Notes: generated by a model not told the origin, from the sequence alone. 64,000 nucleotides of DNA from an uncultured virus (IMG/VR IMGVR_UViG_3300046171_000301) (IMGVR_UViG_3300046171_000301), one strand, 5' to 3'; positions 397 through 31,103 are shown, numbered from the stretch's first letter. Translations and numbers: made by a program.

Positions 397-537
397 ATGT
401 ATCAACTGTTTGTTGAACGCAACGGCCATGTATCACGCATGAGTTATCCACCCATGTCCTACGAAAGAGCTATCGCTATTCGTGAACGGTATCAGCGTGA
501 TTGGCCATGGTTTAAATACTGGGTATCCCTCGGCTAA
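397..537 (+). CDS. small hypothetical protein (46 aa, MYQLFVERNG...), absent from ORF track
   Basis: Hand-translated open frame; its TAA stop is the loop of the first hairpin repeat. Confidence 0.55.
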   Translation: MYQLFVERNGHVSRMSYPPMSYERAIAIRERYQRDWPWFKYWVSLG

Positions 538-575
538 TGCCGGGGGTTTTTTCTTGTGCAATATACATTTCACTT

Positions 576-734
576 ATGGATTTCGACTACATAGACACTC
601 TTCGTGCACGTCTTGCACATGCTGAAGAGCAACTCATGATCGCTGACACTATGTCACAACAGTGTTACTGGGGTAACAAGTGTGATCAACTTGAGGCTTC
701 TATTAAAGCTATTAACTTTATAGAGGCTCTTTGA
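576..734 (+). CDS. small hypothetical early protein
   Basis: ORF track 537..734; internal ATG downstream of the hairpin is the more plausible start. Confidence 0.65.
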   Translation: MDFDYIDTLRARLAHAEEQLMIADTMSQQCYWGNKCDQLEASIKAINFIEAL

Positions 735-736
735 TC

Positions 737-859
737 ATGATTGCATTTGATTCTCAAACGATCATCCTTGCTGTTATCGGCATGGTCGGCTTGTTTGCTA
801 CCGCAACAGTCGTCAGCTATGCCTTTAAACGCAACAAGACAGGTACTGGACAGTACTAG
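737..859 (+). CDS. small membrane protein (40 aa, MIAFDSQTIILAVIG...)
   Basis: Hand-translated; one hydrophobic helix followed by a basic tail; ends just before a hairpin repeat. Confidence 0.6.
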   Translation: MIAFDSQTIILAVIGMVGLFATATVVSYAFKRNKTGTGQY

Positions 860-914
860 GACATACGCCGGCTAACGCCGGCTCTCCGTTTTGATGTTCT
901 TTATCTAAACGAAC

Positions 915-1079
915 ATGTCCGCTATCAAACACCTTCTCGAAGACAAGCTTGAGTTTGACGCCGAGATGGAACTCGAAGGTGAGCTCAACCCATGGGATGA
1001 CCCTGAGGTTATCGCTGAGCTTCATCGACTAGCAGACGAAAATCATCGGGCACAACAGATTCGTCGTCAGCCCTTTTGA
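915..1079 (+). CDS. small acidic hypothetical protein (54 aa)
   Basis: Hand-translated; fills the space between two hairpin repeats. Confidence 0.65.
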   Translation: MSAIKHLLEDKLEFDAEMELEGELNPWDDPEVIAELHRLADENHRAQQIRRQPF

Positions 1080-1138
1080 TTATCTTCCCTCGGTTAACAC
1101 CGGGGGTTTTTCGTCGTGTACTTCTTAACTTTACAGTT

Positions 1139-1294
1139 ATGAACTTTGACGACATGTTCCTCATCCCTAATGGCATGAATCAAGCTTCTGACATCAAGAC
1201 TTGGCTTGACGTTCGCTTGACTGCACTTCAGGATCCTGAGGAAGACTGTATGTCTACCTATGACGAGGAGGACACCCGTCCTATCCTCTTTTAA
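1139..1294 (+). CDS. small acidic hypothetical protein
   Basis: ORF between hairpin repeats, ATG at 1139. Confidence 0.65.
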   Translation: MNFDDMFLIPNGMNQASDIKTWLDVRLTALQDPEEDCMSTYDEEDTRPILF

Positions 1295-1370
1295 CTGCAG
1301 GTGGGGTCGGCTAACGCCGGCCCTTACCTTCATTGCCCCATAGGGCGATTGTTAAACATAGGAGACACTC

Positions 1371-1580
1371 ATGCGTTTCAAAATTCCTGGTCGGAATACA
1401 AACGTTCGTCTTTTCGAACGTGTCGAGACCACTGATCCCCAATACGACATCTTTGATGTAGGTATTGAGTACGAAGATGGTTCGATTGACTCACTCGTCG
1501 TACCGGGTAGCGGCTCGTACGCATCAGCTAAGGCATTCGTCAACCGTATTGACGAGAAGGCTGAGGCTGAAGTGCAGTAA
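1371..1580 (+). CDS. hypothetical protein
   Basis: AGGAG RBS upstream; lies between hairpin repeats. Confidence 0.75.
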   Translation: MRFKIPGRNTNVRLFERVETTDPQYDIFDVGIEYEDGSIDSLVVPGSGSYASAKAFVNRIDEKAEAEVQ

Positions 1581-1773
1581 CAGCTGCATAATCACCTCGC
1601 CGGCTTACGCCGGCTTATTTTTGTTTTTCCTGCAGCTTCCATGAATCCAGAAATGCTTCGGACATATGCGGTGTAGATATTACTTCTCTACTGACGCTTC
1701 GTCCAGCAACTACAGCTGACCATGGTGCATACAAAGGTCCCTGATAGTCTTTCTTTTTAGATTGATCGTGCAT

Positions 1774-2538
1774 TTATCTGAGGTTAAATGGACGTCGTGC
1801 ACTTCCGTACTCTTTACGATCATAATCAGTCTTTCGGCGATCTGGGGCACCTTTGCTTGCCATCAACAGTGCAGTTGCTTCAGGACTTCCTGCAAGTCTG
1901 CGGAACTCACTTCTGTCAGGTGCAGGGACATCCCGTTGGCCTCCACGTCTGTATCTCTCACCCGTATTGGGGTCTGTCCGATAGCTATCGTCTTCAGACG
2001 TACGGTATGGAGATTCATACTCTTCTTCAACAACGTCAGCAGCTGGATATTCCAGATTCATCTCTCTTTCCATAGCATGCTTACGTCCTAACTGATGCGC
2101 TGCACTATTAGCTGCACCGAATCCTCCCCCTACTAGACCAGCTGCCATGATGGTATCCATCGGGCTTAAATCAAGCTGACCTGGCTCCTGCATATCTGCT
2201 GGTCCACCTGTTTGTGTCATGAATGCATTAGTAAGTGCACTTAGACCCATTCCAGCTGCTGTGGCAGGCAAAGCGTATTTGGGTACAGCATTGATTGCTG
2301 GTGCTGCATGGGCTACTACACGTTCCACGCCTGTGAATGCTGGATCCCCAGCTTCAGGCTGTAAAGGACCACGCAGCGAAGGCATACCACCCCCCAGGGT
2401 GTGTCCGAAGCCTTTGACTGCACGTCCTACCCCGTTGTCGGGTAAACGGTCGTATTGATCGCTAATAAACTTAGAATATTGATCATCTTTCTCAGCTAAA
2501 AAGTCTCCCGCACGGCGGAGGTTCTTACGGATATCCAT
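1774..2538 (-). CDS. hypothetical protein, Gly/Ala-rich, possibly virion-associated
   Basis: Long minus-strand ORF; likely start MDIRKNL at 2538. Confidence 0.7.
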   Translation of the reverse strand: MDIRKNLRRAGDFLAEKDDQYSKFISDQYDRLPDNGVGRAVKGFGHTLGGGMPSLRGPLQPEAGDPAFTGVERVVAHAAPAINAVPKYALPATAAGMGLSALTNAFMTQTGGPADMQEPGQLDLSPMDTIMAAGLVGGGFGAANSAAHQLGRKHAMEREMNLEYPAADVVEEEYESPYRTSEDDSYRTDPNTGERYRRGGQRDVPAPDRSEFRRLAGSPEATALLMASKGAPDRRKTDYDRKEYGSARRPFNLR

Positions 2539-2587
2539 GAGCTCAGAGTTACAATATATATATTGTAAATGAAGCCACAATATTACT

Positions 2588-2764
2588 ATGCTTACCGTAT
2601 TACTGGCTTCAGTATTGCAACTAAATCTATTAACTTCATTTAATAACTGCAATGAAGTTCAAGCAATACTTTCAGAGAATGTAGAATCAGGATACATAAG
2701 CAAAAGAGAGGCTGATAAAATTTTAAGAAACTGCCGTAAATATCAAAAGAGATCTGCCGGATAA
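2588..2764 (+). CDS. small hypothetical protein with signal-peptide-like N-terminus (58 aa)
   Basis: Hand-translated; TAA stop is a hairpin-repeat loop. Confidence 0.5.
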   Translation: MLTVLLASVLQLNLLTSFNNCNEVQAILSENVESGYISKREADKILRNCRKYQKRSAG

Positions 2765-3190
2765 CTCCGGCTTCACTAACGATTGTATGAATGAAAAGCA
2801 AGTAGCTCCGCTTGGCCGAATCAAGCACTATGACCCCCGTAGGTCATTTCGTCGTATGGACGTATGTCCAAGATATAACTCTTCCAAACGCTGTCATTTC
2901 AGAGTTGTAGAAGACGAAAAAGGTTGGACAGCTGATTTAGACTGACTCAGTACTAAATTTACAATATAAGATGGCTCTTATAGCCAAATAACAACACTGT
3001 CGGCTAACACCGGCAGTTACAATTGATGTTCGATAATCATTTATGATTAACAACAGCGCTTTTTCAACTAAAGATTCACAACCTTTGACACGAGAAAAAG
3101 CTTTTGAACTTTTGAGAAGTATGTCGAAAGACAAGTTTCTTCAAAAGTTACATATCGATCACTTCAACAACTTAAACATAACCTCAAACA

Positions 3191-3316
3191 ATGGCCGTAT
3201 TTACTAAATCAGGTAATTTTGTCTCTAAGGCCAAGTTTAAAAAGACCCATCAAGGTAATTCCTGTAACTCCAAGCCTCGCAAAGGCAAGAAGTTATTGAG
3301 AGGTCAAGGCAAATAA
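3191..3316 (+). CDS. small basic protein (KKTHQG...RGQGK)
   Basis: Hand-translated 41 aa; resembles a common short basic cyanophage protein. Confidence 0.6.
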   Translation: MAVFTKSGNFVSKAKFKKTHQGNSCNSKPRKGKKLLRGQGK

Positions 3317-3371
3317 CAACCCTGCCGGATAACTCCGGCTCGGTTTTTTGATCGTTCTTCTCAGCAATACC

Positions 3372-3584
3372 ATGTCTGTGAATTTTGACTTTGAAATCAT
3401 CGATCGCTCCGGTGTAGCCGGTATCTCTCTTATCGTTGCTCGCAATGAAGATGCATTCCGCTATCTCACTGACGAGGCCGATATGTGCATCATGGACGAC
3501 GGCTCTGCGCCGCTCGCTACTGAGCATGTTGGAGATTTTATCTCTGATGCATCATGGGCTCACCTTTGCTGTGAGTATGCATGA
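3372..3584 (+). CDS. hypothetical protein
   Basis: ORF downstream of a hairpin repeat. Confidence 0.7.
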   Translation: MSVNFDFEIIDRSGVAGISLIVARNEDAFRYLTDEADMCIMDDGSAPLATEHVGDFISDASWAHLCCEYA

Positions 3585-3741
3585 TGGCCAACACGCCTAA
3601 CTGGATGCATCATTCCAGTAAGCAACAGAAGAGAAAGCTCAAGCCTGCGGCCCTGCGGGCTCGTAAGGCTGCATTGAAAGCTTTAAAGCGTAAATTGGCC
3701 GGTTAACTCCGGCTGTATTTTTTCTTGTTCTTTAAACCATA

Positions 3742-4125
3742 TTGATGGAAATCCCAAACGGTATCTCTACTGCTGATCTTGCTAGCTTGCTAGAGGATGC
3801 ACCTGATGAGAATACCTGCAATTGTTCAGATTCTAATCGTCTTTCCCAAGCACAAATCGAAGAAATTGCTTGTGATGTCCTTGACTCTGTCATGGACGAA
3901 TTGAATTCTGAAGATTGCACATTAGTTCACAAAGTCATTTGTCTAATGGCAATTAGTCGATTCAAGCTTTGGCATGAATCTCTTGCTGAAAACATGATTG
4001 AGGAGGGCATCCCCTTCGATCTTGTCAAAGGGTGGCTCTTCGACGCTGGCAAGCTTCAAGCTTGTGGACAGCTTCTGCAGTCCGTCAGCGTTTCTGACGA
4101 TGATTTCACTTGTGCTCATGCGTAA
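3742..4125 (+). CDS. acidic hypothetical protein
   Basis: ORF track; follows a hairpin repeat. Confidence 0.75.
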   Translation: MMEIPNGISTADLASLLEDAPDENTCNCSDSNRLSQAQIEEIACDVLDSVMDELNSEDCTLVHKVICLMAISRFKLWHESLAENMIEEGIPFDLVKGWLFDAGKLQACGQLLQSVSVSDDDFTCAHA

Positions 4126-4333
4126 AGTTGAAATCAGAGTTAACGAGCCCCCTCTTACTCGTTTTGTGGTGTCTGTCTCAACTGATGAAGAGACACCTGA
4201 GTGGCTAGAAGCCTCAGCCTTCAATACTTCTAAAGAAGTGAAAGAGTTTCTTATGGTTCTTGGGGTCTTTGACCCTGAGAAACCTGGTGACCCAATGTGG
4301 CCAGGTGATCCAATCAACCGAAAGCTTGACTGA
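4118..4333 (+). CDS. hypothetical protein
   Basis: ATG overlaps the upstream gene end; ends before a hairpin repeat. Confidence 0.65.
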   Translation: MRKVEIRVNEPPLTRFVVSVSTDEETPEWLEASAFNTSKEVKEFLMVLGVFDPEKPGDPMWPGDPINRKLD

Positions 4334-4387
4334 GACAATGCCGGCTAACGCCGGCTTTCTCTTCAGTGTTCACTTGAGTATCTACTC

Positions 4388-4567
4388 ATGTCTACTACTG
4401 AGTTACGTGCGTTCCCCCCTGTCTCCGATACTGTTGACTATGTCAAGCAGATCGACTGGCAGGACGTCCGTAACCGCCTCCGCAAAGGCGTCAACCTCAC
4501 TGGAGTCGCAATCGCTGTTGTAGGCGAAAAACTCCACGACCTCGGCACCTTCCTCGGCAATGTCTGA
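4388..4567 (+). CDS. hypothetical protein (59 aa, MSTTELRAF...)
   Basis: Hand-translated; overlaps start of the next ORF. Confidence 0.65.
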   Translation: MSTTELRAFPPVSDTVDYVKQIDWQDVRNRLRKGVNLTGVAIAVVGEKLHDLGTFLGNV

Positions 4568-4808
4568 TTTCATCACACGTTTCTTTGAGGAAAAAGACCT
4601 GGATAACCAGGTTTACGAGGTCACAAGTGCTAACGGTACCCACAACATTCTCTCTACAGACGATGTTGTATGGGCACTTAAGCAAACCTCTGGAACAGAA
4701 CGACAATCCATTGAACGAGTTTTACGTGAACTTGATCGTCGTAATGGGGATGTTCATCACTTCTTGAGACACATGGCTCAAGGTGTAGCCATCTCTCTTC
4801 CATTTTGA
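4560..4808 (+). CDS. hypothetical protein
   Basis: ORF track. Confidence 0.75.
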   Translation: MSDFITRFFEEKDLDNQVYEVTSANGTHNILSTDDVVWALKQTSGTERQSIERVLRELDRRNGDVHHFLRHMAQGVAISLPF

Positions 4809-4880
4809 ACTACTGGGTCGGTTAACACCGGCCCTTTTTTGATGTGGCCATTAGGCCGTAAACCGTAGATGTGATATCAC

Positions 4881-5099
4881 ATGATGTACACCCAGAAATC
4901 TCGTTGCCCTGTAACCGGACGTCTGTCCCGTAAGCGCAACCGATTCCATAGTGCAGAAGCCGAGCGTCAATATAACGCACGTCTTGGTACCGCAAGGCTG
5001 GTACGCAAGATCCTCCCTCGCAATGGCCATACCATCAAGTATTTGATGGATTATCGCCAAGCTGAGCTGGATACTCTCCGCAGTCTTCTGACTGATTGA
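4881..5099 (+). CDS. basic hypothetical protein
   Basis: ORF between hairpin repeats. Confidence 0.65.
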   Translation: MMYTQKSRCPVTGRLSRKRNRFHSAEAERQYNARLGTARLVRKILPRNGHTIKYLMDYRQAELDTLRSLLTD

Positions 5100-5154
5100 G
5101 ACCTTGGTCGGCTAACGCCGGCCTTTTTTCTCATTGTTCATTTTTTAAATTTCA

Positions 5155-5649
5155 ATGACCGAATTCACCAACTACGTCCAGTTCAACCAAGTGACCGTCA
5201 CCGGTCGCATTGCTAAGGCCGAAGTGGTTACTTCTAAGCGTGACAACGGTCAGTTTCTGGCTGTGACTGTTCTCACTACTCTGACCACAAACGGTCAGAC
5301 GTGTGCTTTCACATTCACTGACAACAATGGTCTCCTTAGCTTGCACAACACAGGTTATCTGCCTGTTGGTCGTCAAGTCACTGTCTCCGGCCACATTGCC
5401 GGTGTTAAAGAGACTTACGTCGACAATGCAGGCAACATCAACTTGTTGTCCACTCCTCAGATCAAGCTCTCTGGACCAATGATTCCTGATGGCGGCCTTG
5501 GTGCAATGCCCAAGGACAAGACAGCTGTTGTCTCCAAATCCACAGTGATCCGTCCGTCTGATGCAAACGCACAGGCTACGGCCCCTGTTGATGAAGCGCC
5601 TCAGCTGGCAACAGCCGGTGCTGGCAATGATCAGATCAAAGATTTCTGA
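5155..5649 (+). CDS. putative single-stranded DNA-binding protein (OB fold)
   Basis: NQVTVTGRI and GRQVTVSG SSB-like strands, disordered tail ending DF. Confidence 0.6.
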   Translation: MTEFTNYVQFNQVTVTGRIAKAEVVTSKRDNGQFLAVTVLTTLTTNGQTCAFTFTDNNGLLSLHNTGYLPVGRQVTVSGHIAGVKETYVDNAGNINLLSTPQIKLSGPMIPDGGLGAMPKDKTAVVSKSTVIRPSDANAQATAPVDEAPQLATAGAGNDQIKDF

Positions 5650-5720
5650 TAAAAGACTCCCTCCGGATTACTCCGGGGGGTTTTTTTATTTTCTAGAATA
5701 CGGACATCCGAGGACATCAT

Positions 5721-5960
5721 ATGTATGAACAATTTCAAGGCCCAGAATGGATTCAATGTCCTCTGGAGCCCTACCAAATAGTTAAGTCACGCTTTGGCCT
5801 TTATACCAGTATTGACACTAAAGGTACACGCATGACTACTGCTATGACAGAAGAGGCGTGCAAACTAGTTACTGAAGATATTCATTTGCCTGTTAGGCAC
5901 GGTTGTTATGACGGATGGGTCTCTAAAGGACGTTCTTCGTCTGTTGATGGAAAGCTTTAA
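5721..5960 (+). CDS. hypothetical protein
   Basis: GAGG RBS; ORF track. Confidence 0.7.
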   Translation: MYEQFQGPEWIQCPLEPYQIVKSRFGLYTSIDTKGTRMTTAMTEEACKLVTEDIHLPVRHGCYDGWVSKGRSSSVDGKL

Positions 5961-6760
5961 TGCTTTTTACCATTACCATTACCATTACCATTCATAGCTT
6001 TCCCAATAATTGCGGGTGCTCCGCCAGTATTAACAACAACAGTTTTGGTATTATCACTATCTATTCGTGAATCCCGTCCTGATTCTTGCTTAATTAAACT
6101 AATTAATTCATTTAATTTATCTTCCGCAAATTTATCTGCTGTATTTTCCATTCCCTCAGTTTCATACATAGATCTAGCTTTTCGTCCAGCTTTAATAGCA
6201 TTTCTCCATTGATCTTGACGTAGATAAGCATCGTCTATTATTTCCTTAGCAGTAGAAGCTGCGTAAGGTAAATATTCACGCGCAATGATCTCTAGCTCAT
6301 CAATAGTTGGATTGACCAATTCTTTCGTTAGTAATTTGTTAATTCCCATGTTTTGAATAAACTTGTTATTCGGTGATGGCTGCACTCCTAACTCGCGGTA
6401 ATGCCTATGCACATCATCATGCAATGGTTTACTGATATACATGGTTCCCTTTGGGTTACTACTTAAATTCAATTTAAGTTCATCACGAAATAAACTATTT
6501 AATCTTGCAATGTCATCCGGACTTTTTGCATGATCTAATATTAAACTTATTGTTTCTAATGGAATAATATGATGAAGCTTATCTTCAATATCACCTCTTA
6601 CAAAACTCAATGCAGTGTTATCACCTTGCATTAGTTTTTGAGCTTTATTATTTTCTACTTTGTATCCATTTGTAAATTGCATACCATAATTAGCCCTATT
6701 CTCACGAATAGTTCTATCTTTTGGAGCTGTTCTAGATGTTAATGGTTTATTTCTTGGCAC
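5957..6760 (-). CDS. hypothetical protein with HNH-like His motifs
   Basis: HHIIP...N...HDDVH pattern; AT-rich. Confidence 0.55.
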   Translation of the reverse strand: MPRNKPLTSRTAPKDRTIRENRANYGMQFTNGYKVENNKAQKLMQGDNTALSFVRGDIEDKLHHIIPLETISLILDHAKSPDDIARLNSLFRDELKLNLSSNPKGTMYISKPLHDDVHRHYRELGVQPSPNNKFIQNMGINKLLTKELVNPTIDELEIIAREYLPYAASTAKEIIDDAYLRQDQWRNAIKAGRKARSMYETEGMENTADKFAEDKLNELISLIKQESGRDSRIDSDNTKTVVVNTGGAPAIIGKAMNGNGNGNGKKH

Positions 6761-6886
6761 ATATGCCTATACCTTATGTTTACTCTTCTGTACTTATTTA
6801 AGTGGCATAAGATATTTCCTCCTCTAATAAGTTTATCTAATTCTTAATACTTACTAAGATAGATATAGTCGCCTTAACTAACTCTG

Positions 6887-7732
6887 ATGGGCAAGAAGAA
6901 AAAGTGGGCTAATTTAAGCCAAGCTCAAAAAGATAAGCACGGATCTAAGAAGGAGTGGGAGCAAGCTAAAAATAAAGCTGCTGCACGTAAAAACACTCCT
7001 GCTGAAAATCCTGCAAAGGCCGCTGCCCGGATTGTCAAAAATACAGGTGGCGCAAAATATAATCAGTTAAGTGACGTGCAGAAAACAAAAGTCGATCGCA
7101 AGACTTACAAACAAGCCAAACAAACACAATCAGTAACTCCTACTCCTTCCCCATCTCCTAACAAACCAAAAGCCGCTGCTGTACAACTTATAAATCAAGA
7201 TAAAGGTAAATTAAAAGAAAAAGATGCAGAAAGAATTGCTGGAGAGGCTGGACTGTCTGTCAATAAAATTATTAAGTTAGCTCAGAACAAAGTGAGCGAT
7301 AAAGTAATTGGCAAGAAACTAACTAAACCAACTTCTAATCAACCTGAGACTACTTCTACTCCTACTCCTACTCCTACAACACCGGGCGTAGAATCACCTG
7401 TTTATGGAAAAAGAATTGGAGCTCCTCCAGGAACAATGGGAACTCATGATTTTAAAGATAGTGACGGAGATAGCGTAGACGACCGACATCAATCAGGTGC
7501 AGGTATGCCTGACTCACGGTTTAAAACTCCCGAACAATCAACACAAGATTGGCAAGATGCTAAAACTAAAGCTACTGGATTCAAGGGTAAAGAAGCAAAG
7601 CCAGGTTATTCATATGAAGGCTCTAAATTTGATGCACAGTCATATATGCAAAATTTGACTGCTAACAATCAAACATGGCAAAACAAAGATAGACGGAAAG
7701 GCTCTACAAGCTATAACTTGAACCTAATGTAA
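6887..7732 (+). CDS. Lys/Pro/Thr-rich hypothetical protein
   Basis: 281-aa low-complexity ORF. Confidence 0.75.
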   Translation: MGKKKKWANLSQAQKDKHGSKKEWEQAKNKAAARKNTPAENPAKAAARIVKNTGGAKYNQLSDVQKTKVDRKTYKQAKQTQSVTPTPSPSPNKPKAAAVQLINQDKGKLKEKDAERIAGEAGLSVNKIIKLAQNKVSDKVIGKKLTKPTSNQPETTSTPTPTPTTPGVESPVYGKRIGAPPGTMGTHDFKDSDGDSVDDRHQSGAGMPDSRFKTPEQSTQDWQDAKTKATGFKGKEAKPGYSYEGSKFDAQSYMQNLTANNQTWQNKDRRKGSTSYNLNLM

Positions 7733-7898
7733 TGAATAATCAGAATTTAAATCCAGATATGTATCCTGGAATGAAAGATGATCCATATGGTTTTCCTATA
7801 AAAATGTCTACTGAAAAGTTGACAAAAAATGACTGGGTTGAGTATTATTATATTGAAGCAACTAGATATCAAGCTTTTATAAACTTCACTTCAAACAA

Positions 7899-8129
7899 AT
7901 GACTTGCAATAACTTTGATCACAAAGAAACTTCTGCGTATGGAACACGTAACTTCTACAAGAAAATGTTTGATGACTATCTTGCCGATGTAGGCGATGGC
8001 TATCATAATGCTGACAATCTTATTTTAGGTCTATTAGATTCAGCTTATGATTGGTTTGAATATCACGAAACTGCTGCTAAGCGATACAAAGGTTTCATAG
8101 AGAAAGCACAAGAGATCTGTAAAGATTGA
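7899..8129 (+). CDS. hypothetical protein
   Basis: ORF track. Confidence 0.7.
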   Translation: MTCNNFDHKETSAYGTRNFYKKMFDDYLADVGDGYHNADNLILGLLDSAYDWFEYHETAAKRYKGFIEKAQEICKD

Positions 8130-8478
8130 CAGATATGCCGGCTAACGCCGGCTTTATCTTTTGCGCTCACATTAATAGTGAGCTGTCCTATATCTACTGT
8201 GTTATGGCACTTGTAAAGCTTTCAGTGCAAATGAATGACGTTATTGTCACGACTTTGCGAAACCTCTCAGAGCAAGAATATCACTGTCCAGATACACTCA
8301 AAATGATTGCTGATGTTCTCGAACGCAGCAAAGAAGACAGTATTATTATGAATGAGTCCGAAGAAGAACAGCGTCAGGACTCCTCCAAGAAGGTTTCAAG
8401 TGTTTTTGCTGTTTCCGCTTGAGTAATTAACCGGGGTGCCAACTGGTGCCCCCACCCTTTCATTTATATCATTGACTC

Positions 8479-12283: not shown

Positions 12284-12367
12284 AAAGTATTCAGCCGGTT
12301 AACACCGGCTTTAACCATTCGTGCTCGTCATAAACACGGCGAGTGTTGTTTATATGAGATCTAATTC

Positions 12368-13330
12368 ATGCCCGCAAATTTCACATCTGGCTGGCTCGGC
12401 AATGGAGAACGTGCATGGCACGGTATGGGGGTCGTCACTGACGGCACACTCCCGGCGCGAGAGGCGTTTGAAACTGCAGACGCATTATTCACTGTCGAGA
12501 AGCGAGCGCTTCAATACCCGACATTCTCATCTGTTGGAGAGAATGACGCCAATTGCTGGTCAAATACACCAGCAGGTGTCTTCGGAGTTGTCCGCACTGA
12601 CACCCAAGCCCTCCTCGGCATCGTCACCAAGCAATACGAGCTGGTGCAAAACGAAGCCCTCTTACGCATGGCGGAGTTCATCCGTGAAGAGGTCGACATG
12701 GACGCCGTCGTCGTACTTGCGGACGGGGCCAAAGTCTGCTTTACCGCCACACTCCGTGGTGCGGAAACGGACATCGTCCCTGGAGACACAATCAAACGTC
12801 GTATTGTTGGCTACGTAGGCCACGACGGCAAGACCGGCTGTGGTGCCAAGTTCACTAACATCCGTGTTGTCTGTCAAAACACTTTGACTGCAGCGCTTGG
12901 TGAATCCGGTGCTCACAGCAGCATTACTCACAAAAATGGTGCTAACAACAACTTCGATGCTCTAATTAACAGTATTGATGTAGCACGTCAGGACTTTGTC
13001 ACTGAGTGCGACCTGATGCGTGAATTCTCACGTGTGTCTATGGGTGTTGATGCCTTCCACGAGTTTGTTGATGAGGTCTACAACATTGACGACAGTCAAG
13101 TGTTCCGTAAGCGCGGTTATCTTGAAACTGCATTCCGAGTTGGCTATGGCCAAGAGTATGCGCCTTTCTCTCTGTGGACTGGCGTTAATGCCATCACACA
13201 GGTAGAGACAAGTACTCGTGGCACAACTGCTGCCAAGGGTCGCGCTCAATTTGCTCGTGGAACCTTCGGTGCTGGCGCTCAAATAAGCAAGCGTGCGTTT
13301 GCTGTAGCAAGTGACTTAGTCACTGCCTGA
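12368..13330 (+). CDS. DUF932 family phage/plasmid protein
   Basis: WHGMG, VRTD..LGIV..Y..VQN, HDG, TNIRVVCQNTL motifs. Confidence 0.88.
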   Translation: MPANFTSGWLGNGERAWHGMGVVTDGTLPAREAFETADALFTVEKRALQYPTFSSVGENDANCWSNTPAGVFGVVRTDTQALLGIVTKQYELVQNEALLRMAEFIREEVDMDAVVVLADGAKVCFTATLRGAETDIVPGDTIKRRIVGYVGHDGKTGCGAKFTNIRVVCQNTLTAALGESGAHSSITHKNGANNNFDALINSIDVARQDFVTECDLMREFSRVSMGVDAFHEFVDEVYNIDDSQVFRKRGYLETAFRVGYGQEYAPFSLWTGVNAITQVETSTRGTTAAKGRAQFARGTFGAGAQISKRAFAVASDLVTA

Positions 13331-13737: not shown

Positions 13738-14121
13738 TAAGCTTGAGATTATCTCTCGCTTAATTATTGTTAATCGCTAATATTGTATTAGTCGCAGATA
13801 TATTTATGTCTCGTACTTACCGCAAAGAACCTCAAAATCGTACTGGCCTTAGGCTTCCAAAAACAACAAGAGAACGTCGACAGCTAAAAGGTTTAAAAAA
13901 TGATTTGAGAGATAATGATTACGATGTCTCGCCTAGAAATCGAATTAATCGATATATTCCTACCTCATACGATGACCTTTGGGCCAGCTCACTAAAGCAA
14001 AATCATTACCACAAAAATTGAGTATTAATTCTAACCAAAATGAATGTTAAGAAAGTTAAACTAATTATGTAGGCAAATGCCGATATACATAATTCACTCA
14101 AACTTGCATTCATTTAATCAC

Positions 14122-15207
14122 ATGACTACTATCTCTCAATCTAAATCCCGCATGTCGGGTTATAGCTGGGAAGAATTTTGTCAGTGGGTTGCAAGTACAA
14201 ACAATCGGCTTTATGTGGGCTGGTTTGGTGTGCTTATGATCCCCTGTCTTCTTGCAGCAACTATTTGTTTTATCGTCGCTTTTGTAGCGGCACCACCCGT
14301 AGATATCGATGGAATTAGAGAACCGGTTGCAGGATCTCTCCTGTACGGAAACAACATTATTTCAGGCGCAGTTGTCCCCAGCAGCAACGCCATTGGCCTG
14401 CACTTCTATCCCATCTGGGAAGCCCTTAGTCTCGACGAATGGCTCTACAACGGTGGACCATACCAACTTGTCGTCTTTCACTTCCTTATCGGTGTCTTCG
14501 CTTACATGGGACGCGAATGGGAACTTAGTTACCGACTGGGAATGAGGCCCTGGATCTGTGTTGCTTACTCCGCTCCCGTCGCCGCCGCCTCGGCTGTCTT
14601 TCTTGTTTATCCGTTTGGCCAAGGTTCGTTCTCAGATGGTATGCCTCTGGGAATCTCTGGTACGTTCAACTACATGCTGGTGTTCCAGGCTGAGCACAAC
14701 ATTCTTATGCATCCTTTCCACATGTTGGGAGTTGCTGGTGTATTCGGTGGAGCTCTTTTCAGTGCTATGCACGGCTCTCTTGTCACGAGCTCACTCGTTC
14801 GCGAAACAACTGAAAAAGAAAGCCTAAACTATGGCTATAAGTTTGGACAAGAAGAAGAGACTTATAATATTGTTGCTGCCCATGGTTATTTTGGGCGTTT
14901 AATATTTCAATATGCCTCCTTTAATAACTCTAGGTCCCTTCACTTTTTCTTGGCTGCTTGGCCTGTGGTTGGTATTTGGTTTACTAGCCTTGGTGTTAGC
15001 ACTATGGCTTTCAATCTTAACGGATTTAACTTTAATCAATCCATTATCGATTCTCAGTCTCGTGTCATTAATACTTGGGCCGATATTCTCAATCGTCAGG
15101 GACTAGGTATGGAAGTGATGCACGAGCGCAACGCTCACAACTTTCCTCTCGACCTCGCTGCTGCATCTACAACTAAAGTGGCACTTGTTGCCCCATCTGT
15201 TGGATGA
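14122..15207 (+). CDS. psbA: photosystem II D1 protein
   Basis: [37 protein letters not shown]; start MTTISQ at 14122. Confidence 0.99.
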
Positions 15208-16108: not shown

Positions 16109-16719
16109 TTTAAGTTTTGATTTTAAGTAGAAATACACAATAAAATAACCTCCAAGCCGGCTAACACCGGCTATATTTATGTTGTGCCCGGCGATTGGGC
16201 CTGTTATATATTTGATGGCTAAATGCAAATTTCAAAAGAAACACTTCAGGATCTTACTGAGATAATTGAAGACACAGTCCAATATTTCTGTGATACTCAT
16301 CAAGCATCAGGACAGCTTGCATGGACATGTATCGAAGCCTTGTCCGCCGCTAAGCTTGCAGAACTCAATGGAGAACTTTCAGCAATCAACGGTTGACAAT
16401 GACATTAGATACAGATAAAGTAAGAATGCACTGGGAAAACCTTGCAGAACATCTAAAATATCAACTTCCAACTTTAATAGACGGCGAAATTCTATATTGG
16501 GTCTACGAGACCGCAGCTGAAGGCCAATGCTCTGATCAAGACGAAGACACACTATATGAAATCCTCTCAGATATGGCTGAGTGGAAAATCCTTGTGTCTT
16601 ACGACGTCAATCCAACTTATGGCGGTGATAAAAGTCACCCGCCTTGTGACATATAAACCTTGGCCGGCTAATGCCGGCTATATCTATCGCGCCTTTGGGC
16701 AATATTCACTGAATTAATT

Positions 16720-17364
16720 ATGACTCAAACTATTTCTGCTCCAGATACTGCTGCCATTGTTGCTGAACTTGGCGGTCAATCAACTGCTGAAGTCAGCGTA
16801 ATGATTGGCATTGGACTTGTTAAAGACAGCGATGCAGTCTATTTCCAATATGTTGGTGATGACAAGACACAAGCACTTGTCAAAGACAACGGAACACCAT
16901 TGACTCGTATCTCCCCTGTGCGTTTCAAAGGTATCAGTATTGCTGACGATATTTATAAAGATGCAGGATTTCAAGGCAGCAAGCTAAACGTGTTCTTTGA
17001 GACACAGCAGCAGCGCACTGTAATGCTTACCGCTGGCTTGACTACTATTTGGTCCCAATGCATCCTCAGCGGCCTTATGGGGCTGCTTGAGACAGGATCT
17101 ATTGATTCACTTGTGTCTGTAGACACTTGGAAAGGTAATTCCAAAATGAAGCCTTGCTTTGCTGGTATTCGCAACAACGGCATGAAAATCGTAAGTGAAG
17201 AGCTTAAGTCACTTCTTAGCGAAGCTCGTGCTGATCGCGACAAAGAAAAAGTGAATACATTGATTCGCAACGCAGTGGAGGCTCTCTCAATCCAAGAAGC
17301 TGTAGTAACTGAAGAAGTTCCTGCATCTAACAGTGAATTGGCTGCTGTTGCTGGCGATTTCTAA
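16720..17364 (+). CDS. hypothetical protein
   Basis: 214-aa ORF downstream of a hairpin repeat. Confidence 0.8.
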   Translation: MTQTISAPDTAAIVAELGGQSTAEVSVMIGIGLVKDSDAVYFQYVGDDKTQALVKDNGTPLTRISPVRFKGISIADDIYKDAGFQGSKLNVFFETQQQRTVMLTAGLTTIWSQCILSGLMGLLETGSIDSLVSVDTWKGNSKMKPCFAGIRNNGMKIVSEELKSLLSEARADRDKEKVNTLIRNAVEALSIQEAVVTEEVPASNSELAAVAGDF

Positions 17365-19182: not shown

Positions 19183-19413
19183 ATGTCAAACAATAAAGCA
19201 AACGTAGTAGAAGCAACAGGTACAATTTTCAAAGAAAGTGGTAATGGTTTTTTCAATGTAGAACTGGATCAGCCAGAGGGACATGAGTGTCTTTGTAGAG
19301 CTTCAGGTAAATTAATTACACGCAAGATTCAGCTGCTAGTAGGAGATAAAGTGTCAGTAGAACTGTCTCCATTTGATTTATCAAGAGGTAGAATTACTTT
19401 TAGAGAAAAGTGA
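19183..19413 (+). CDS. infA: translation initiation factor IF-1
   Basis: F.VELD, SGK...I.LLVGDKV.VELSPFDLSRGRITFR. Confidence 0.92.
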   Translation: MSNNKANVVEATGTIFKESGNGFFNVELDQPEGHECLCRASGKLITRKIQLLVGDKVSVELSPFDLSRGRITFREK

Positions 19414-22812: not shown

Positions 22813-22845
22813 TTAAACTTAAGACTGAAAATATATTCAGTCAAT

Positions 22846-23505: not shown

Positions 23506-23549
23506 TCGACGTATTTATAAACAACTTAAGAGACCAGGCTGGGACGCGC

Positions 23550-24022: not shown

Positions 24023-24312
24023 CGTTTACGTGCTGCCTTTCCGCGCTCCCCTGTCCATCCTCTAGACCTAGCACAGAAGCTCTTCCGTCTAGCTGCGTCT
24101 TTTTTAGTTTTGGGATTAGGAGCAGGTGCTTTCAAATTAGAGCCTGTTCTTCTATTAATTGATGCTCTACCTTTAGCTGACAATCCAGCCCCCTCTTTAA
24201 CTGATAATTTGTGACCACCTTTAACGGTCATACCGTCCATAGCGCCTTTCTTCTTACTTTTAGTGTATTTTTGAGCACGCTCTTTGGCTTTGCCACATTT
24301 AGTACACGCCAT
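24010..24312 (-). CDS. small basic hypothetical protein
   Basis: GL.AKGRA...NLKAP...RRKSFCAR (DUF6321-like). Confidence 0.7.
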   Translation of the reverse strand: MACTKCGKAKERAQKYTKSKKKGAMDGMTVKGGHKLSVKEGAGLSAKGRASINRRTGSNLKAPAPNPKTKKDAARRKSFCARSRGWTGERGKAARKRWNC

Positions 24313-24373
24313 TGAAATTATCCCACATCATTCAATTGTAGTACTTATAGTAAAAGTGTCTAACGTATATAAA

Positions 24374-25111: not shown

Positions 25112-25116
25112 TAATC

Positions 25117-25524
25117 ATGACTAACGCACTACAAAATCTGCCTCCTGAGCTTCAAGCTCGTCTAGCTGCAGTAATGGCCCAGCAACAAGGTCAAACTACA
25201 GAAACGCCTCAACAACAAGTACAGCTGCAGCAAGGGGGGCCTCAAATCCCAGTACAGCCTACGCAGCAACCTGCTCAAGCAGAACCAAAGCAGCCTTCAT
25301 TGATTGACATTCTCACAATGCTGCGTCAAGAGATTGGAGCGTTGCGTCAGGAAGTCGCAGCTGTAAGTCAGCAAATTGCGGCAGAATCTCAAGTCACCGA
25401 AGCTGTTGGCCATGCAGTGGGACGTATGTATCAGATGTTTCAACCGTCCGAACAATCAGCTGCAGCTCCAACGTATAGCCAGACGTTTCAAAACCAACAA
25501 GTAGAGGAGGAAGGTGACTACTGA
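25117..25524 (+). CDS. Gln-rich hypothetical protein
   Basis: ORF track. Confidence 0.75.
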   Translation: MTNALQNLPPELQARLAAVMAQQQGQTTETPQQQVQLQQGGPQIPVQPTQQPAQAEPKQPSLIDILTMLRQEIGALRQEVAAVSQQIAAESQVTEAVGHAVGRMYQMFQPSEQSAAAPTYSQTFQNQQVEEEGDY

Positions 25525-26287
25525 TCTGCCGTTTAGGATTCAAACGCCTAGCGGTTACCGTAAGTACCTCTGCTCAGGCATGTACTTGCCTTCAGTTACA
25601 ACAGTTCTATCCGCTACAGAGACGGAAAAATCTAAAGCTAGTTTACGCACTTGGCAGCTAAACAATCCTGGTGCACTAGAAGAGGCCAGTACCCGTGGAT
25701 CAGCAATCCATAAATGTTGTGAAGATCACATCAGAGGTTTGCCCATTGACTGCCCGCCAGAATATCAAGACTTCTGGAATGGAATGTCTCAGTACCTTGA
25801 TTGGTTTGATATAATTCATTGGTCAGAGCGGCCTCTCCGTAAGGATTGGTACCATTTACGTTCTGATGACAAGGAAGTTGCATTTGTTTGGAGTACTGAA
25901 CATAAATATGCTGGCTGTCCTGACTTGATTGGTGAAATAGGTGGAGTCAAGGTAATAGCGGACTTTAAGACCAGCAATGGCCCTTATATGAACCGCTTTC
26001 CTGACAAAGGTGATCGAATGGGTTTTGGAGGGTTTCGTAAGTATCAGAAGTGTGCACAACAAATGGCAGCCTATCGGTATGCATTAAATGAGCGCACAGG
26101 ATTCTTATGTGATGTGGCATTGATTATTGTCACAACTTCAGAAACCAATCAAGCTATCTTTATTGATGGTGATCAGCTTAGCCTGTACGAATCAAGGTTT
26201 ATTAAAAGAGCACAACAGTTCCACGAAATAGAAAGCGATAATGAAACTGAAAATTGCAGTCAACAAGAATTGCAAAAACAAGAGTAA
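25514..26287 (+). CDS. PD-(D/E)XK exonuclease
   Basis: PSVTTVL, RGSAIH, AGCPD, DFKTS, Q..AY motifs. Confidence 0.9.
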   Translation: MTTDLPFRIQTPSGYRKYLCSGMYLPSVTTVLSATETEKSKASLRTWQLNNPGALEEASTRGSAIHKCCEDHIRGLPIDCPPEYQDFWNGMSQYLDWFDIIHWSERPLRKDWYHLRSDDKEVAFVWSTEHKYAGCPDLIGEIGGVKVIADFKTSNGPYMNRFPDKGDRMGFGGFRKYQKCAQQMAAYRYALNERTGFLCDVALIIVTTSETNQAIFIDGDQLSLYESRFIKRAQQFHEIESDNETENCSQQELQKQE

Positions 26288-28478: not shown

Positions 28479-28742
28479 TTAAACTAAATCTATAAAGACA
28501 AATATCATGCTTGTACAAAATATTGAGATTGGATTGCGCGTCAAAGTCACTAACAATGGTCTGACTGCACTAGTTGTAGGCAAGCCTGAGTATTACACTC
28601 CAAAGGCAAAGCTTGTGCGCATTAAATACGAAAACAGTACGCGATATGAATATATCGTCAACAATCAAATTGAATCATTGCCTATTATTGAACAATACCC
28701 AGCTTTGGGTGGTAACTATTGTCGACCTGTAAATGGTTTCTA

Positions 28743-29558
28743 ATGTCAGAAGCAAGTCCTAGTAAAAAAAGTCATCCTTATGGAAGACGTAATCGACGTA
28801 TATCAAATACAGCAGAACAAGGAGAACTATGTCTTTACTCCGGCCACGGCATGGGCAGGTTCTCTTCTCATTCAATGAGATATGAAAGCCATCAAGCTTG
28901 TACAAGATGCGTTGCAGGAGCAAGAGAAGGACGACTGTCTTTTAATATTGATGGGCTATTGAAAAAGCATCGTCAAAGAGCATTAAAATTTTGGAGTCAA
29001 GTAGATATTGCAGCTCCTGACGAATGCTGGAATTGGCATGGCTGCATAAATTCACGTACACATCAACCTCAATTTTCTTGGCGAAGGCCAGGAATAAGCA
29101 CATCAACACAGCACCATCCACAGCGAGTAGCAATGTGGTTTAGCTGGGGTGATTTAGGTTATACAGGTGTTAAAACAACATGTGGAAATAAGTATTGCTG
29201 TAATCCATTTCATCTCATACCTCAAAACATTGGAGTGTTTGTAGATGATGATAGTTACATCGATAGTTTTGAGCTTGCCTGTCAAATTCATACTTTAAAA
29301 CAGCAAGTGCAAGAATACTTAGTTGAGCAAGCATTTGCAGAAGAGGCGAAACAAGATCAATCTTTAATTATTGATGAGAGAGCAGAACTTTTTCTAGACA
29401 ATGATGCAAGCTTCAACAAACGGGTACAAGCAGTAATGCATGATATTTTAGAAGGTCGTCATGTTTCACAAGCAGATCCTGAATTTCCTGGACTATATCG
29501 GCAATTAGATGTAGATAATGAAAATGACGATGATGATAATCCCACACATGAATATTAA
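28743..29558 (+). CDS. Cys-rich HNH-like (His-Me finger) protein
   Basis: FWSQV..DECWNW and TCGNKYCCNPFHL. Confidence 0.65.
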   Translation: MSEASPSKKSHPYGRRNRRISNTAEQGELCLYSGHGMGRFSSHSMRYESHQACTRCVAGAREGRLSFNIDGLLKKHRQRALKFWSQVDIAAPDECWNWHGCINSRTHQPQFSWRRPGISTSTQHHPQRVAMWFSWGDLGYTGVKTTCGNKYCCNPFHLIPQNIGVFVDDDSYIDSFELACQIHTLKQQVQEYLVEQAFAEEAKQDQSLIIDERAELFLDNDASFNKRVQAVMHDILEGRHVSQADPEFPGLYRQLDVDNENDDDDNPTHEY

Positions 29559-29590
29559 ATTGATTATCCTTATTAAAGAGTCATAACATT

Positions 29591-30010
29591 ATGTCAAGGC
29601 GAACAGATTTACTAAAAAAATTAGTTCAATCAAATAAATTTGGACAAGAAAAAGAGCAAGAGCAAAGTTTTCTTATTGCTACTGCTGAATTGATTTTATC
29701 CGATTTGATTGAAATAGCTCTAAAGGGTATTGAATCTCGTGGGCCAGGATCACTTGTCATTAATCTAATCAATGATTCTTCAGTCTATATGGCTGGAGCA
29801 GATATTGAAGGAGATTTACTTGTTGCCGAAGCACATAAGGATGAGGATGTTATTGATTTTTTACGACCATTAATCAACAAGGTTGATACAAATGATTGGA
29901 GTAAAAACGTATTAATTACATTAATTAGCGATGCAGGAACAAGAACATTTGCAGTTGAAGCAGGAGGGAGCCAAGAAAGCCTCCGAGCGTTCGCATCAGA
30001 ATTTACATGA
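29591..30010 (+). CDS. hypothetical protein
   Basis: ORF track. Confidence 0.7.
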   Translation: MSRRTDLLKKLVQSNKFGQEKEQEQSFLIATAELILSDLIEIALKGIESRGPGSLVINLINDSSVYMAGADIEGDLLVAEAHKDEDVIDFLRPLINKVDTNDWSKNVLITLISDAGTRTFAVEAGGSQESLRAFASEFT

Positions 30011-30599
30011 CAAACTAAAGGCGCAAGGCTTAAAGCTTCCCCTCTATCCCACTCCACAAATTATTGAGAGGGCTAGAACTGTAATGGGCAGCATTGACCT
30101 AGACCCTACTTCAGATCCTGTTCAACAAGTTCTTGTTGATGCTGTATCTGTCCCATCACTTGAAGTAAATCCACTCCAAGAGCATTGGCATGGAAATGTT
30201 TTTGTAGCTCCAAAAGGAGCAGTACGTAATAGCCGACTGTGGTTTAATAAAACACTTAGTGAATATAGAAATTCTTATATTGATTCATTTATATTTTTTA
30301 CAAGTGCCTCTGAATTATTAAGAGCCTGTCCTGCGATTTACGATTATCCATTTTGTATCCCTTTTAAACGTGTTAGACAGTTACGCGCCACTGGCAATGG
30401 ATTTGAACACGTTTCACCTTCTACGTGGAATGTTATTGTTTATGGGCCTCCACTTGATCAAGTTATATCAGATATTGATAAAGTAAGCCTTTTCTACAAT
30501 ACCTTTAGAGACATTGGCAGAATTTGCTATAACGAATACTCAGGTGATGATTGGTCAAAAGATCTTCAGTATTATGACGATAATCGGGGAAATGTATAA
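29931..30599 (+). CDS. phage N6-adenine methyltransferase-like protein with degenerate catalytic motif
   Basis: TP.IIE.AR.VMG.IDLDP.S and WHGNVF, but APKG in place of NPPY. Confidence 0.65.
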   Translation: MQEQEHLQLKQEGAKKASERSHQNLHDKLKAQGLKLPLYPTPQIIERARTVMGSIDLDPTSDPVQQVLVDAVSVPSLEVNPLQEHWHGNVFVAPKGAVRNSRLWFNKTLSEYRNSYIDSFIFFTSASELLRACPAIYDYPFCIPFKRVRQLRATGNGFEHVSPSTWNVIVYGPPLDQVISDIDKVSLFYNTFRDIGRICYNEYSGDDWSKDLQYYDDNRGNV

Positions 30600-31012
30600 T
30601 GCACAAACATATTCCCAAGCAATATCTTTATACACTTCCTTCAGGTACCAATGTTCATCCATGCAGATTAATAGTAAAAGATGGATCCTTAATGTGGAAA
30701 CATGCTCTATTAATGCAAAATAAATATTTATTTATTCCCGAATCATTAGCTCACGAAGTTCATATTATTAAAACTGCTCAACGAATTGAGGATTTAAATA
30801 CCTGGTTAATGGACGATTTAAATCCATGGGAAAGCTTAATTCCGCAATATTGGTACTATCCAGAAGACAAAGAGCTAAGCGAGGGGATTGCTTTGTATAT
30901 GAAACATTTTCTTCATTCGAATGATTATGTGCTGGAAAAACTTTCTGATCATCTTCAAGAGCATGAAACACTAACAATAAGAGACAATTATTTGTTTTTT
31001 AAACGTTGTTAG
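30599..31012 (+). CDS. hypothetical protein
   Basis: ORF track. Confidence 0.65.
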   Translation: MHKHIPKQYLYTLPSGTNVHPCRLIVKDGSLMWKHALLMQNKYLFIPESLAHEVHIIKTAQRIEDLNTWLMDDLNPWESLIPQYWYYPEDKELSEGIALYMKHFLHSNDYVLEKLSDHLQEHETLTIRDNYLFFKRC

Positions 31013-31103
31013 GCCGGCTAACGCCGTCAATTATCCATGTGAATACATCGCAAATCACGCTGATATTCTTTATATTGAAATTGAGATTACGACATACAAA
31101 AAT

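Follow-up and report, generated by a model that had tools for sequence, protein, structure and literature searches.

Promoter-early stem-loop (PeSL) cassettes are the closest described counterpart of the element reported here. They were found in the T4-type phages RB49 and phi1 (Arbiol et al. 2010, PMC2839356), and that paper describes units of about 100 bp with strong sigma-70-like -35 and -10 elements, an AT-rich upstream region and a Shine-Dalgarno sequence, and proposes recombination between units as the cause of gene gain and loss. In this study, we analyzed a repeated hairpin unit in a 64,000-nucleotide (nt) stretch of DNA, referred to as the window, from an uncultured virus (IMG/VR IMGVR_UViG_3300046171_000301). 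We propose, with about even confidence, that each unit is an RNA-level terminator or attenuator joined to the start region of the next gene, and that it doubles as a PeSL-like recombination joint.

Comparison of the two elements revealed shared features as well as clear differences. Both are repeated intergenic stem-loops of the terminator or attenuator type that flank small orphan genes in a plastic early region, and in both a gene can stand between two units in one phage where a relative has a single unit. In contrast, the unit in the window is only about 50 nt long, has neither -10/-35 elements nor a Shine-Dalgarno sequence, belongs to another phage lineage and host, and always carries its hairpin 5' of a TG box in a fixed register. 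The unit works like a PeSL in genome evolution, but it fails two defining PeSL features and is not a PeSL member. An initial annotation of the window had listed PeSLs among three analogues; this one was the closest. Its cassette behavior was found again, whereas the sigma-70-like promoter and the Shine-Dalgarno sequence were not. The unit also resembles an ordinary intrinsic terminator, with a GC-rich hairpin of 6-9 bp and a stable tetraloop just past the stop codon, and a U tract in nine of 18 copies. It differs from one in several ways: half of the units have no U tract, copies within one genome are uniform in sequence, a conserved box follows in fixed register, and the hairpin is maintained by covariation even where the tail is missing.

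The window was identified as a cyanophage by PHROG and Pfam scans, which detected psbA (14077-15207), transaldolase (talC), PTOX, ribonucleotide reductase, thymidylate synthase and primase-helicase genes together with a family-A DNA polymerase split into two parts (31933-32457 and 32450-33751). The early and middle genes all lie on the plus strand and the tail-fibre genes on the minus strand, and the window also encodes eight transfer RNAs (tRNAs) and one glutamine riboswitch. This gene set agrees with the uncultured BAC21E04-type cyanophage lineage of Flores-Uribe et al. (bioRxiv 10.1101/325100), which is oceans-wide according to that preprint and has no cultured member. A blastn search of window positions 1-8000 against a phage collection found no close relative among cultured phages, a tblastn search with a 586-aa structural protein gave no match in the collection, and the DNA polymerase was at most 46% identical to those of T7-like cyanophages. 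The words hairpin, terminator, promoter, stem-loop and motif occur nowhere in the accessible Flores-Uribe text. Literature searches with the hairpin strings returned no paper, and a query for cyanophage intergenic stem-loops returned nothing on the element, which is undescribed in print as far as the literature was searched.

The initial annotation had reported 18 one-way copies at gene boundaries, 13 of them in the first 5.7 kb, and our counts bore this out. The exact pattern CGGNTAACNCCG (CGG-N-TAAC-N-CCG) matched 14 times in the window, always on the plus strand, against an expectation of 0.03, and none of 100 shuffles reached 14 exact matches. When up to one mismatch was allowed, four copies at 531, 1601, 5664 and 16665 were added to give 18 on the plus strand, 13 of which lie within 527-5680. 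At the same tolerance, only two matches (12583 and 48576) were present on the minus strand, both within coding sequence. The first of these, CGGACAACTCCG at 12583-12594 inside a DUF932 gene, is kept at the same site in the relatives G003, G004 and G005, and it probably reflects coding conservation outside the hairpin family. The end of a plus-strand open reading frame (ORF) precedes each of the 18 copies. Among units of the window and its relatives having an upstream ORF, the stop codon lay within 11 nt of the hairpin, or in its loop, in 56 of 62. It was located 1-11 nt 5' of the stem in 36 of the 62, and the loop TAA itself was the stop in up to 20, as in the window ORFs 397-537, 2588-2764 and 3581-3706.

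The hairpins have stems of 6-9 bp and TAAC loops, with three variants in the window carrying TAAT or TTAC. Among 62 units (window plus four relatives), the closing pair was C-G in 35, U-A in 16, A-U in five, G-U in one and another combination in five; the outermost core pair covaried too (G-C 47, A-U 5, C-G 4, G-U 4). The observed covariation score was reached by none of 500 shuffles, and slid controls scored far lower. Shape as well as sequence is conserved, as had been suggested, with outer stems that vary while keeping their pairing, and the three copies said to have a mismatched closing pair were located at 3001, 3700 and 16158. The outer stem is broken (GCCGTC) in the copy at 31015, and the variant copies at 350-365 and 35910-31 have stems other than the family type. 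A covariance model built from these units, a check proposed at the outset, recovered the 18 training copies plus one at 35904-35954, with no hit on the minus strand. In relatives outside the training set, each of the 28 hits fell on the strand that carries the genes; a search of late-gene regions there gave no hit. No Rfam family reached its gathering score on the units. We also observed one clear terminator in the late block (51610-51633, minus strand), where an unrelated 10-bp stem carries the same TAAC loop closed by C-G; together with the TAAT loop at 35910-31, this suggests a loop preference that does not depend on the stem.

Alignment of 61 units on the loop revealed a common anatomy of about 50 nt, in which a stop codon, the GC hairpin with its UAAC tetraloop, a T-rich linker, a TG-led pyrimidine box and a start codon follow one another. 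In loop-anchored numbering, the hairpin spans -6 to +9 and the linker +10 to +19. Of the 61 units, 47 had T at +22 and 38 had G at +23, followed by Y-Y-C-T-T-T-A, and the individual boxes were degenerate beyond TG. Where a downstream start was found (63 units), the next ATG was located at +39 to +44 in 27 units and at +50 to +63 in 15 more, about 19 nt past the box (19-27 nt in both unit classes); the gap between hairpin and ATG was just 29-32 nt in the commonest class. The TG stayed at +22 even where the ATG lay at +50 to +63, and there it forms the foot of a second GC-rich hairpin. Measured from the loop, the position of the TG was sharper (38 of 52 at +22) than when it was measured from the end of the extended stem. 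The linker showed lower predicted pairing than its shuffles, with A at +13 and U at +17 in about a third of units. No offset gave a Shine-Dalgarno-like word in as many as six of 62 units, and no such word was enriched.

Three other explanations of the box were tried and rejected. Predicted pairing at +21 to +24 in one-hairpin units was raised (0.50-0.63 versus 0.36), but a second hairpin at this position would be weak, with a mean folding energy of -6.1 versus -5.0 kcal/mol in shuffles. A mini-ORF opened by a DTG in the box ended ahead of the main ATG, or with a stop that overlaps it, in 25 of 42 units versus 17 and 15 of 42 in the other frames, which was unconvincing. If the box were a -35 hexamer, the matching -10 would land within the coding region. 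Words resembling the TG box, GTTCAC and TTTGT(T/A/C)C (CACGTTTGT(T/A/C)C), are abundant in the non-coding left control region of the window (60-240, plus strand); relative G004 has a similar left region (L093, 2880-3100). This region could hold early promoters, operators or an origin.

The units found in the window, all on the plus strand, are as follows.

350-399, plus strand: variant first unit with CACGCC-TAAC-GGCGTG, 11 nt, a TGTTCTC box and ATG 397; upstream there is only a 27-codon ORF, and the unit is not significant with model R1 at E<=1.
527-578, plus strand: unit 1, an 8-bp hairpin (dG -15.8, tail score 4.9) with a TAAT loop whose TAA is the stop of ORF 397-537, a T6 tail, GTG at +21 and ATG 576.
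867-917, plus strand: unit 2, GCCGGC-TAAC-GCCGGC with a weak tail, box ATGTTCTTTA and ATG 915.
1087-1141, plus strand: unit 3, an 8-bp hairpin with a T5 tail, box GTGTAC and ATG 1139.
1303-1373, plus strand: unit 4, of the two-hairpin class, a 9-bp hairpin without a T tract; TTG at +21 opens GCCC-CATA-GGGC, and an AGGAG Shine-Dalgarno sequence precedes ATG 1371.
1599-1614, plus strand: hairpin 5, with a TTAC loop and a T-rich tail; it ends the first gene block and is followed by the minus-strand ORF 1774-2538.
2756-2789, plus strand: unit 6, GCCGGA-TAAC-TCCGGC without a T tract; the loop TAA is the stop of ORF 2588-2764, and the start is ATG 2787.
2996-3045, plus strand: unit 7, with a C.A closing mismatch, no T tract, box ATGTTC and ATG 3043.
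3324-3374, plus strand: unit 8, GCCGGA-TAAC-TCCGGC with a delayed T6, box GTTCTTC and ATG 3372.
3696-3747, plus strand: unit 9, with a T.T closing mismatch, a T6 tail, box TTGTTCTTTAAAC and ATG 3745; the basic 41-aa gene 3581-3706 ends on the loop TAA.
4340-4390, plus strand: unit 10, chimeric relative to G001, where two units and an additional 106-aa gene occupy this place.
4815-4883, plus strand: unit 11, of the two-hairpin class, an 8-bp hairpin with a T6 tail; GTG at +21 opens GGCC-ATTA-GGCC, and the start is ATG 4881.
5106-5157, plus strand: unit 12, a 7-bp hairpin with a T6 tail, box TTGTTCATT and ATG 5155, the start of a gene resembling those of single-strand DNA-binding proteins (SSB-like).
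5659-5723, plus strand: unit 13, a 9-bp hairpin with a TTAC loop and a T7 tail (the strongest terminator form), no TG box and ATG 5721.
8137-8206, plus strand: unit 14, of the two-hairpin class, with a T-rich tail and a second hairpin GCTCAC..GTGAGC from +22.
12293-12370, plus strand: unit 15, of the two-hairpin class, before the DUF932 gene, without a T tract and with a second hairpin from +21.
16155-16225, plus strand: unit 16, of the two-hairpin class, with a C.A closing mismatch and a second hairpin GCCCGG..TTGGGC.
16661-16722, plus strand: unit 17, before a 214-aa gene; it has an ortholog in 26 relatives, with compensatory changes in both hairpins.
31013-31106, plus strand: unit 18, with a degenerate stem, located after gene 30599-31012 and ahead of the DNA polymerase module; the hairpin occupies this site in dozens of related contigs.
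35910-35957, plus strand: extra family-like unit, AAGGCCCAC-TAAT-GTGGGCTTT with a T-rich tail and ATG 35955 (PTOX gene); covariance model score 27.9 bits, E 1.5e-5.

The ORF 1774-2538 that follows hairpin 5 encodes 254 aa in the opposite orientation within the early array, and in relatives it is shorter or replaced. A DNA contig from another sample omits 1596-2059 and has 38 other letters instead.

To describe the spread of the element, viral contigs were scanned for the 16-base hairpin, and 89 loci were found, mostly in relatives of the window phage at 65-80% identity. Forward and reverse copies in five related records numbered 10/1, 1/10, 1/16, 22/1 and 6/3, while a reversed-pattern control gave 0-3; one relative, a 78-kb contig, contained up to 22 one-way copies. 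A sister lineage retained the TAAC loop and had its stem altered on both sides to GCCGC-T / A-GCGGC. In the unit before the 214-aa gene, orthologous across the 26 relatives, hairpin 1 showed compensatory changes at all six pairs, five of which were compensated in at least five sequences each, and the second hairpin, 11-13 nt downstream of hairpin 1, covaried as well. The hairpin-1 loop of this unit was not always TAAC in wider relatives (GGTT, TGTC, TACC). Since stems and loops change among relatives, it is the structure that is kept family-wide, and the CCGG/TAAC spelling is the house style of each lineage. In bacteria, GCCGGCTAACGCCGGCTTT (the hairpin plus TTT) was found at 90 loci, as a single copy in each; among the 80 titled loci none was cyanobacterial, and no prophage arrays were seen. 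The interpretation in the initial annotation is thus partly supported: the element is phage-specific and bounds cassettes, and it proved to be lineage-wide. Two of the analogies in the annotation, with N4 promoters and RNase III sites, are not supported, as discussed below.

When protein families were mapped across the early regions of five genomes, a common backbone emerged with many lineage-specific small genes in hairpin-bounded slots, and a few gene families occupied different slots in different genomes. When homology blocks between the window and relative G001 were examined, eight of 40 block ends fell within -25 to +45 of a loop (1.4 expected), and ends lay exactly on a hairpin edge at 2756, 4338, 5125, 5673, 12294 and 31010. 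In particular, blocks shared with G001 start at 2756 (unit 6) and 12294 (unit 15) and end at 5125 (unit 12). To the left, the unit at 4340-4390 matches the flank of G001 unit 3606, and to the right that of G001 unit 3978, and in G001 the extra 106-aa gene stands between these two units; one cassette was gained or lost exactly between two units. The block ends, the chimeric unit and this gain or loss support the earlier claim that the units bound cassettes of one or two genes that differ among relatives, and gene order between repeats was found to vary among the relatives, contrary to the invariance that the initial annotation had named as a refuting condition. Hairpin junctions were broken in 21 of 28 informative comparisons and other gene junctions in 43 of 82 (Fisher p = 0.046); with G001 alone, the corresponding numbers were 10 of 17 and 16 of 48 (p = 0.087). 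Additionally, DNA contigs of two other samples had joints or loose ends by the hairpins at 1596, 2758, 4840/4841 and 8135, which lends weak support to recombination at hairpins.

We next consider the form of the hairpins as terminators, with tail strength given by our own T-weighted tail score. Hairpin energies ranged from -4.9 to -17.1 kcal/mol, and the tail was strong in nine of the 18 window copies and weak in the other nine, in line with the earlier remark that many copies lack a T tract. Across relatives, 39 of 65 units had at least five T in the first 8 nt after the stem. A terminator scan passed 12 of the 17 window copies within 1-18 kb and 38 sites overall, versus 12.4 expected. Judged by sequence, half of the window copies are canonical intrinsic terminators in form, and the single copies of hairpin plus TTT across diverse bacteria suggest that this combination is a good generic terminator.

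No comparable sign of a promoter was found. The sigma-70-type -10 word TANNNT showed no peak at any fixed offset in 62 units and was depleted between hairpin and ATG, being present in 14 of 36 units versus 27.5 +/- 2.4 in shuffles. Pfam and PHROG searches found no RNA polymerase or sigma family in 90 window ORFs, and a search of 40 ORFs (36 from G004, all of at least 150 aa, and four from the window) found none except one sigma-70 protein in G004. This protein is complete, with 313 aa and regions 1.2, 2, 3 and 4, and lies in the late-gene block of G004 (L096, 662-1603, minus strand) and G005 (L097); it was absent from the window and G001 by tblastn and occurs in only two of five relatives. Neither the window nor a 98%-complete relative yielded a phage RNA polymerase. 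PF00940 was detected in none of five relatives, a negative that is weak alone because the control of that search gave no signal in any control genome. DxDGD-type hits examined as candidates for a two-barrel polymerase in large ORFs proved to be only the primase motif and tail-fibre or other proteins. The check for a phage polymerase or sigma factor proposed in the initial annotation has therefore returned no polymerase, and a sigma factor only in G004 and G005. With the hexamers depleted, no polymerase detected and no sigma factor in the window, the units are not separate host-type promoters, and no dedicated reader is seen.

The reading we prefer takes in the observed anatomy, covariation, strand and position rules, lineage spread, absence of promoter hexamers and recombination joints, and to these it would add termination, RNA stabilization, read-through and a role for the box. 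The repeats would be intercistronic punctuation modules that act on the transcript of early and middle genes and consist of two joined halves. In the first half, the GC-rich UAAC hairpin, 0-11 nt past the upstream stop or containing it, would end or attenuate transcription where a U tract is present (about half of the copies) and would in all copies provide a nuclease-resistant 3' end for the upstream message. In the second half, the U-rich linker, the fixed-register TG pyrimidine box and an A/U-rich leader lacking a Shine-Dalgarno sequence would open the next gene. The genes would be transcribed by the host polymerase from upstream, passing leaky or regulated terminators. The recurring unit of about 50 nt may also serve as a homology patch where relatives recombine, and because of this the genes between two units would behave as cassettes.

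Such units offer a concrete handle on gene timing in an uncultured ocean phage lineage, as they mark nearly every early gene, and the genes behind them must be expressed although the units lack a standard promoter or ribosome-binding site. To our knowledge the host has no Rho, and it uses few Shine-Dalgarno sites. Gene shuffling between repeated regulatory units, so far documented in T4-type coliphages, operates here in an unrelated cyanophage group and helps explain how such phages gain and drop small host-takeover genes. If the box proved to be a Nus-factor or pause signal, the phage early program would have a new wiring.

Several observations weigh against this reading. The U tract is absent from nine of the 18 window hairpins, and in most relatives a canonical tail is also missing from the conserved unit before the 214-aa gene, so termination is not the whole function. 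Thirteen serial terminator-like hairpins would silence the distal genes unless read-through were high or regulated. The first unit (350-399) has no sizeable upstream gene to terminate, which is more in keeping with a start signal than with a stop signal. A plain translation leader does not account for the anchoring of the TG box to the hairpin and not to the start codon, and the crowding of similar words at the non-coding left end is a hint of a DNA-binding reader. Breaks at hairpins exceed those at other intergenic junctions only modestly. Finally, contigs of two oligo-dT RNA runs, of low depth, showed no RNA starts or ends at units; these runs contain 5-10% of the sampled words of the stretch as small contigs, some crossing hairpins, that are not distinguishable from DNA carry-over.

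Some of these points would be met if each unit were a terminator followed by a private, non-standard promoter, composed of the TG box and an A/T-rich stretch and read by a host polymerase modified by an unrecognized phage factor. The unit would then be a true PeSL analogue, and every cassette its own transcription unit with a very short leader. We regard this as possible but rather unlikely. In both unit classes a conserved DNA word, the box, precedes the ATG at a fixed place, and words like it cluster in the left control regions of the window and G004, but the boxes are degenerate past TG, and in two-hairpin units hairpin 2 simply has its foot at the TG of +22. Fresh starts are required after a series of good terminators and the first unit has no upstream gene, yet no fixed -10-type hexamer is present and the hexamers are depleted. 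Cassettes of this kind exist, as PeSLs show (PMC2839356). A phage polymerase was not found, and the sigma factor is limited to two of five relatives and to their late block; moreover, early genes at first depend on the unmodified host polymerase.

In an alternative that we consider unlikely, each unit is a terminator combined with an rrn-style antitermination or pause site, in which the UAAC hairpin corresponds to boxB and the box to boxA, in the order of rrn leaders. The hairpin and UGYUCUUUA would recruit the host factors NusB-S10 and NusA, perhaps with a small Arg/Lys-rich phage protein, onto the polymerase, which would then pass the later terminators as a timed cascade. A hairpin-stabilized pause at the U-G step, 12-13 nt past the stem, is a further possibility, and the geometry of such his-type pauses fits this distance. 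According to published work, boxB precedes boxA in rrn leaders, whose boxA words are 5'-UGCUCUUUA-3' or 5'-CGCUCUUA-3' (PMC2724277), and UMAC loops fold like GNRA, the phi21 boxB hexaloop CUAACC binding the N peptide (PMC12550061). [quoted passage not shown] However, just 15 of the 85 units reached eight of nine, and many boxes (TGTGCAA, TGTAACT, TGTCATT) are far from boxA; a cyanobacterial boxA from the rRNA spacer is given as GAACCTTGAAAA (PMC8461337), and this host-type core scored at background in the units. The box resembles boxA at the consensus level only, as far as sequence comparison goes.

The other parts of this alternative are similarly divided. The UAAC loop is of the UMAC type, like that of phi21 boxB (PMC12550061), but the hairpin-1 loop changes in wider relatives (GGTT, TGTC, TACC), so a loop-specific binder is not conserved. 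The 41-aa early protein (3581-3706, plus strand), rich in Lys and Arg and with an isoelectric point (pI) of 12, is conserved in the four of five compared lineages that show it, but it belongs to phrog_3309 (unknown function) and has no known function or link to N; tblastn gave no match in phages and the atlas returned unnamed clusters only, and it is a candidate only for a putative RNA-binding partner. Like rrn and lambdoid nut sites (PMC2724277 and PMC12550061), the unit places a hairpin with a GNRA-foldable loop beside a U-rich word near UGCUCUUUA; it is transcript-borne and one-way, and the phage early region around it is rich in terminators. Many serial terminators call for antitermination. 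In contrast, the cyanophage genomes carry 18-22 copies, compared with one or two nut sites, and no known system has 18 or more; the hairpin of the unit already resembles a terminator, a 12-nt spacer separates it from a degenerate box, the recorded cyanobacterial boxA is different, and no N protein was identified. Were this alternative true, polymerases would be re-armed gene by gene for a timed read-through cascade of early genes, and a nut system would be multiplied about 20-fold in a host without Rho.

RNA processing alone would explain the units if host RNase E, which some cyanophages exploit, cut the U-rich linker beside the hairpin to release monocistronic messages with 3' hairpins, an outcome like that of RNase III on T7 early RNA. 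We consider this quite improbable. The Synechocystis enzyme cleaves RNA that is single-stranded and has A at -3 and U at +2, in many cases close to start or stop codons and in intergenic regions (PMC8682795). The low predicted pairing of the linker and its A at +13 and U at +17 fit this description, but such a signature is generic to A/U-rich linkers and leaves the conserved TG unexplained. Processing of the RNase III type, one of the analogies in the initial annotation, is ruled out by stems of 6-9 bp, which are too short. An RNase III substrate comprises about two helical turns of double-stranded RNA.

DNA-level recombination sites resembling integron attC, used by the phage tyrosine integrase, are very improbable. 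An attC site is an imperfect palindrome of 57-141 bp with two core-site pairs and bulged bases, recognized by an integron integrase. The units are oriented hairpins at the 3' end of one-gene cassettes, with joints at hairpins and an integrase gene at 39733-40596 (minus strand; a match to the general phage integrase family only), but they are near-perfect hairpins of 16-22 nt without the paired inner and outer repeats and bulged bases of attC. That they are strictly tied to stop and start codons, as well as to U tracts, speaks for a role in expression, and homologous recombination between 50-nt repeats would be sufficient.

The N4 hairpin promoter has a 5-7 bp stem and a 3-nt loop and occurs in few copies before early operons. 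A reading of the units as such DNA promoters, served by a phage-encoded polymerase, is close to refuted: like N4 promoters and T7 RNase III sites they are small structured elements of a phage early region, one-way before early genes, one of which (5155-5649) is SSB-like, but searches of the window and the 98%-complete relative found no RNA polymerase of the virion or T7 type, the loops have four nucleotides and not three, the 18-22 copies lie at gene ends, many with U tracts, and the stems are far shorter than an RNase III substrate.

Other features of the window were also noted. An IF-1/eIF-1A-like translation initiation factor is encoded at 19183-19413 (plus strand; Pfam PF01176, E 3e-15), which is worth mentioning because the early genes of the same genome lack Shine-Dalgarno sites. 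The glutamine riboswitch aptamer lies at 35401-35455 (plus strand; Rfam RF01739, 37.7 bits, over the gathering score). A tRNA-Ser gene (39147-39235, plus strand) overlaps an HNH endonuclease ORF (39111-39632, minus strand) that adjoins the integrase gene, and this neighborhood is a possible attachment-site region. In total, three HNH or homing-type endonuclease genes are present (28719-29558, 38014-38505 and 39111-39632), one of them within the replication module. Two early or middle proteins, encoded at 5155-5649 and 16720-17364 (both plus strand), had no Pfam or PHROG match and share an acidic C-terminal tail with a terminal D-F that resembles the tails of single-strand DNA-binding proteins; the 16720-17364 protein is conserved across 32 related contigs.

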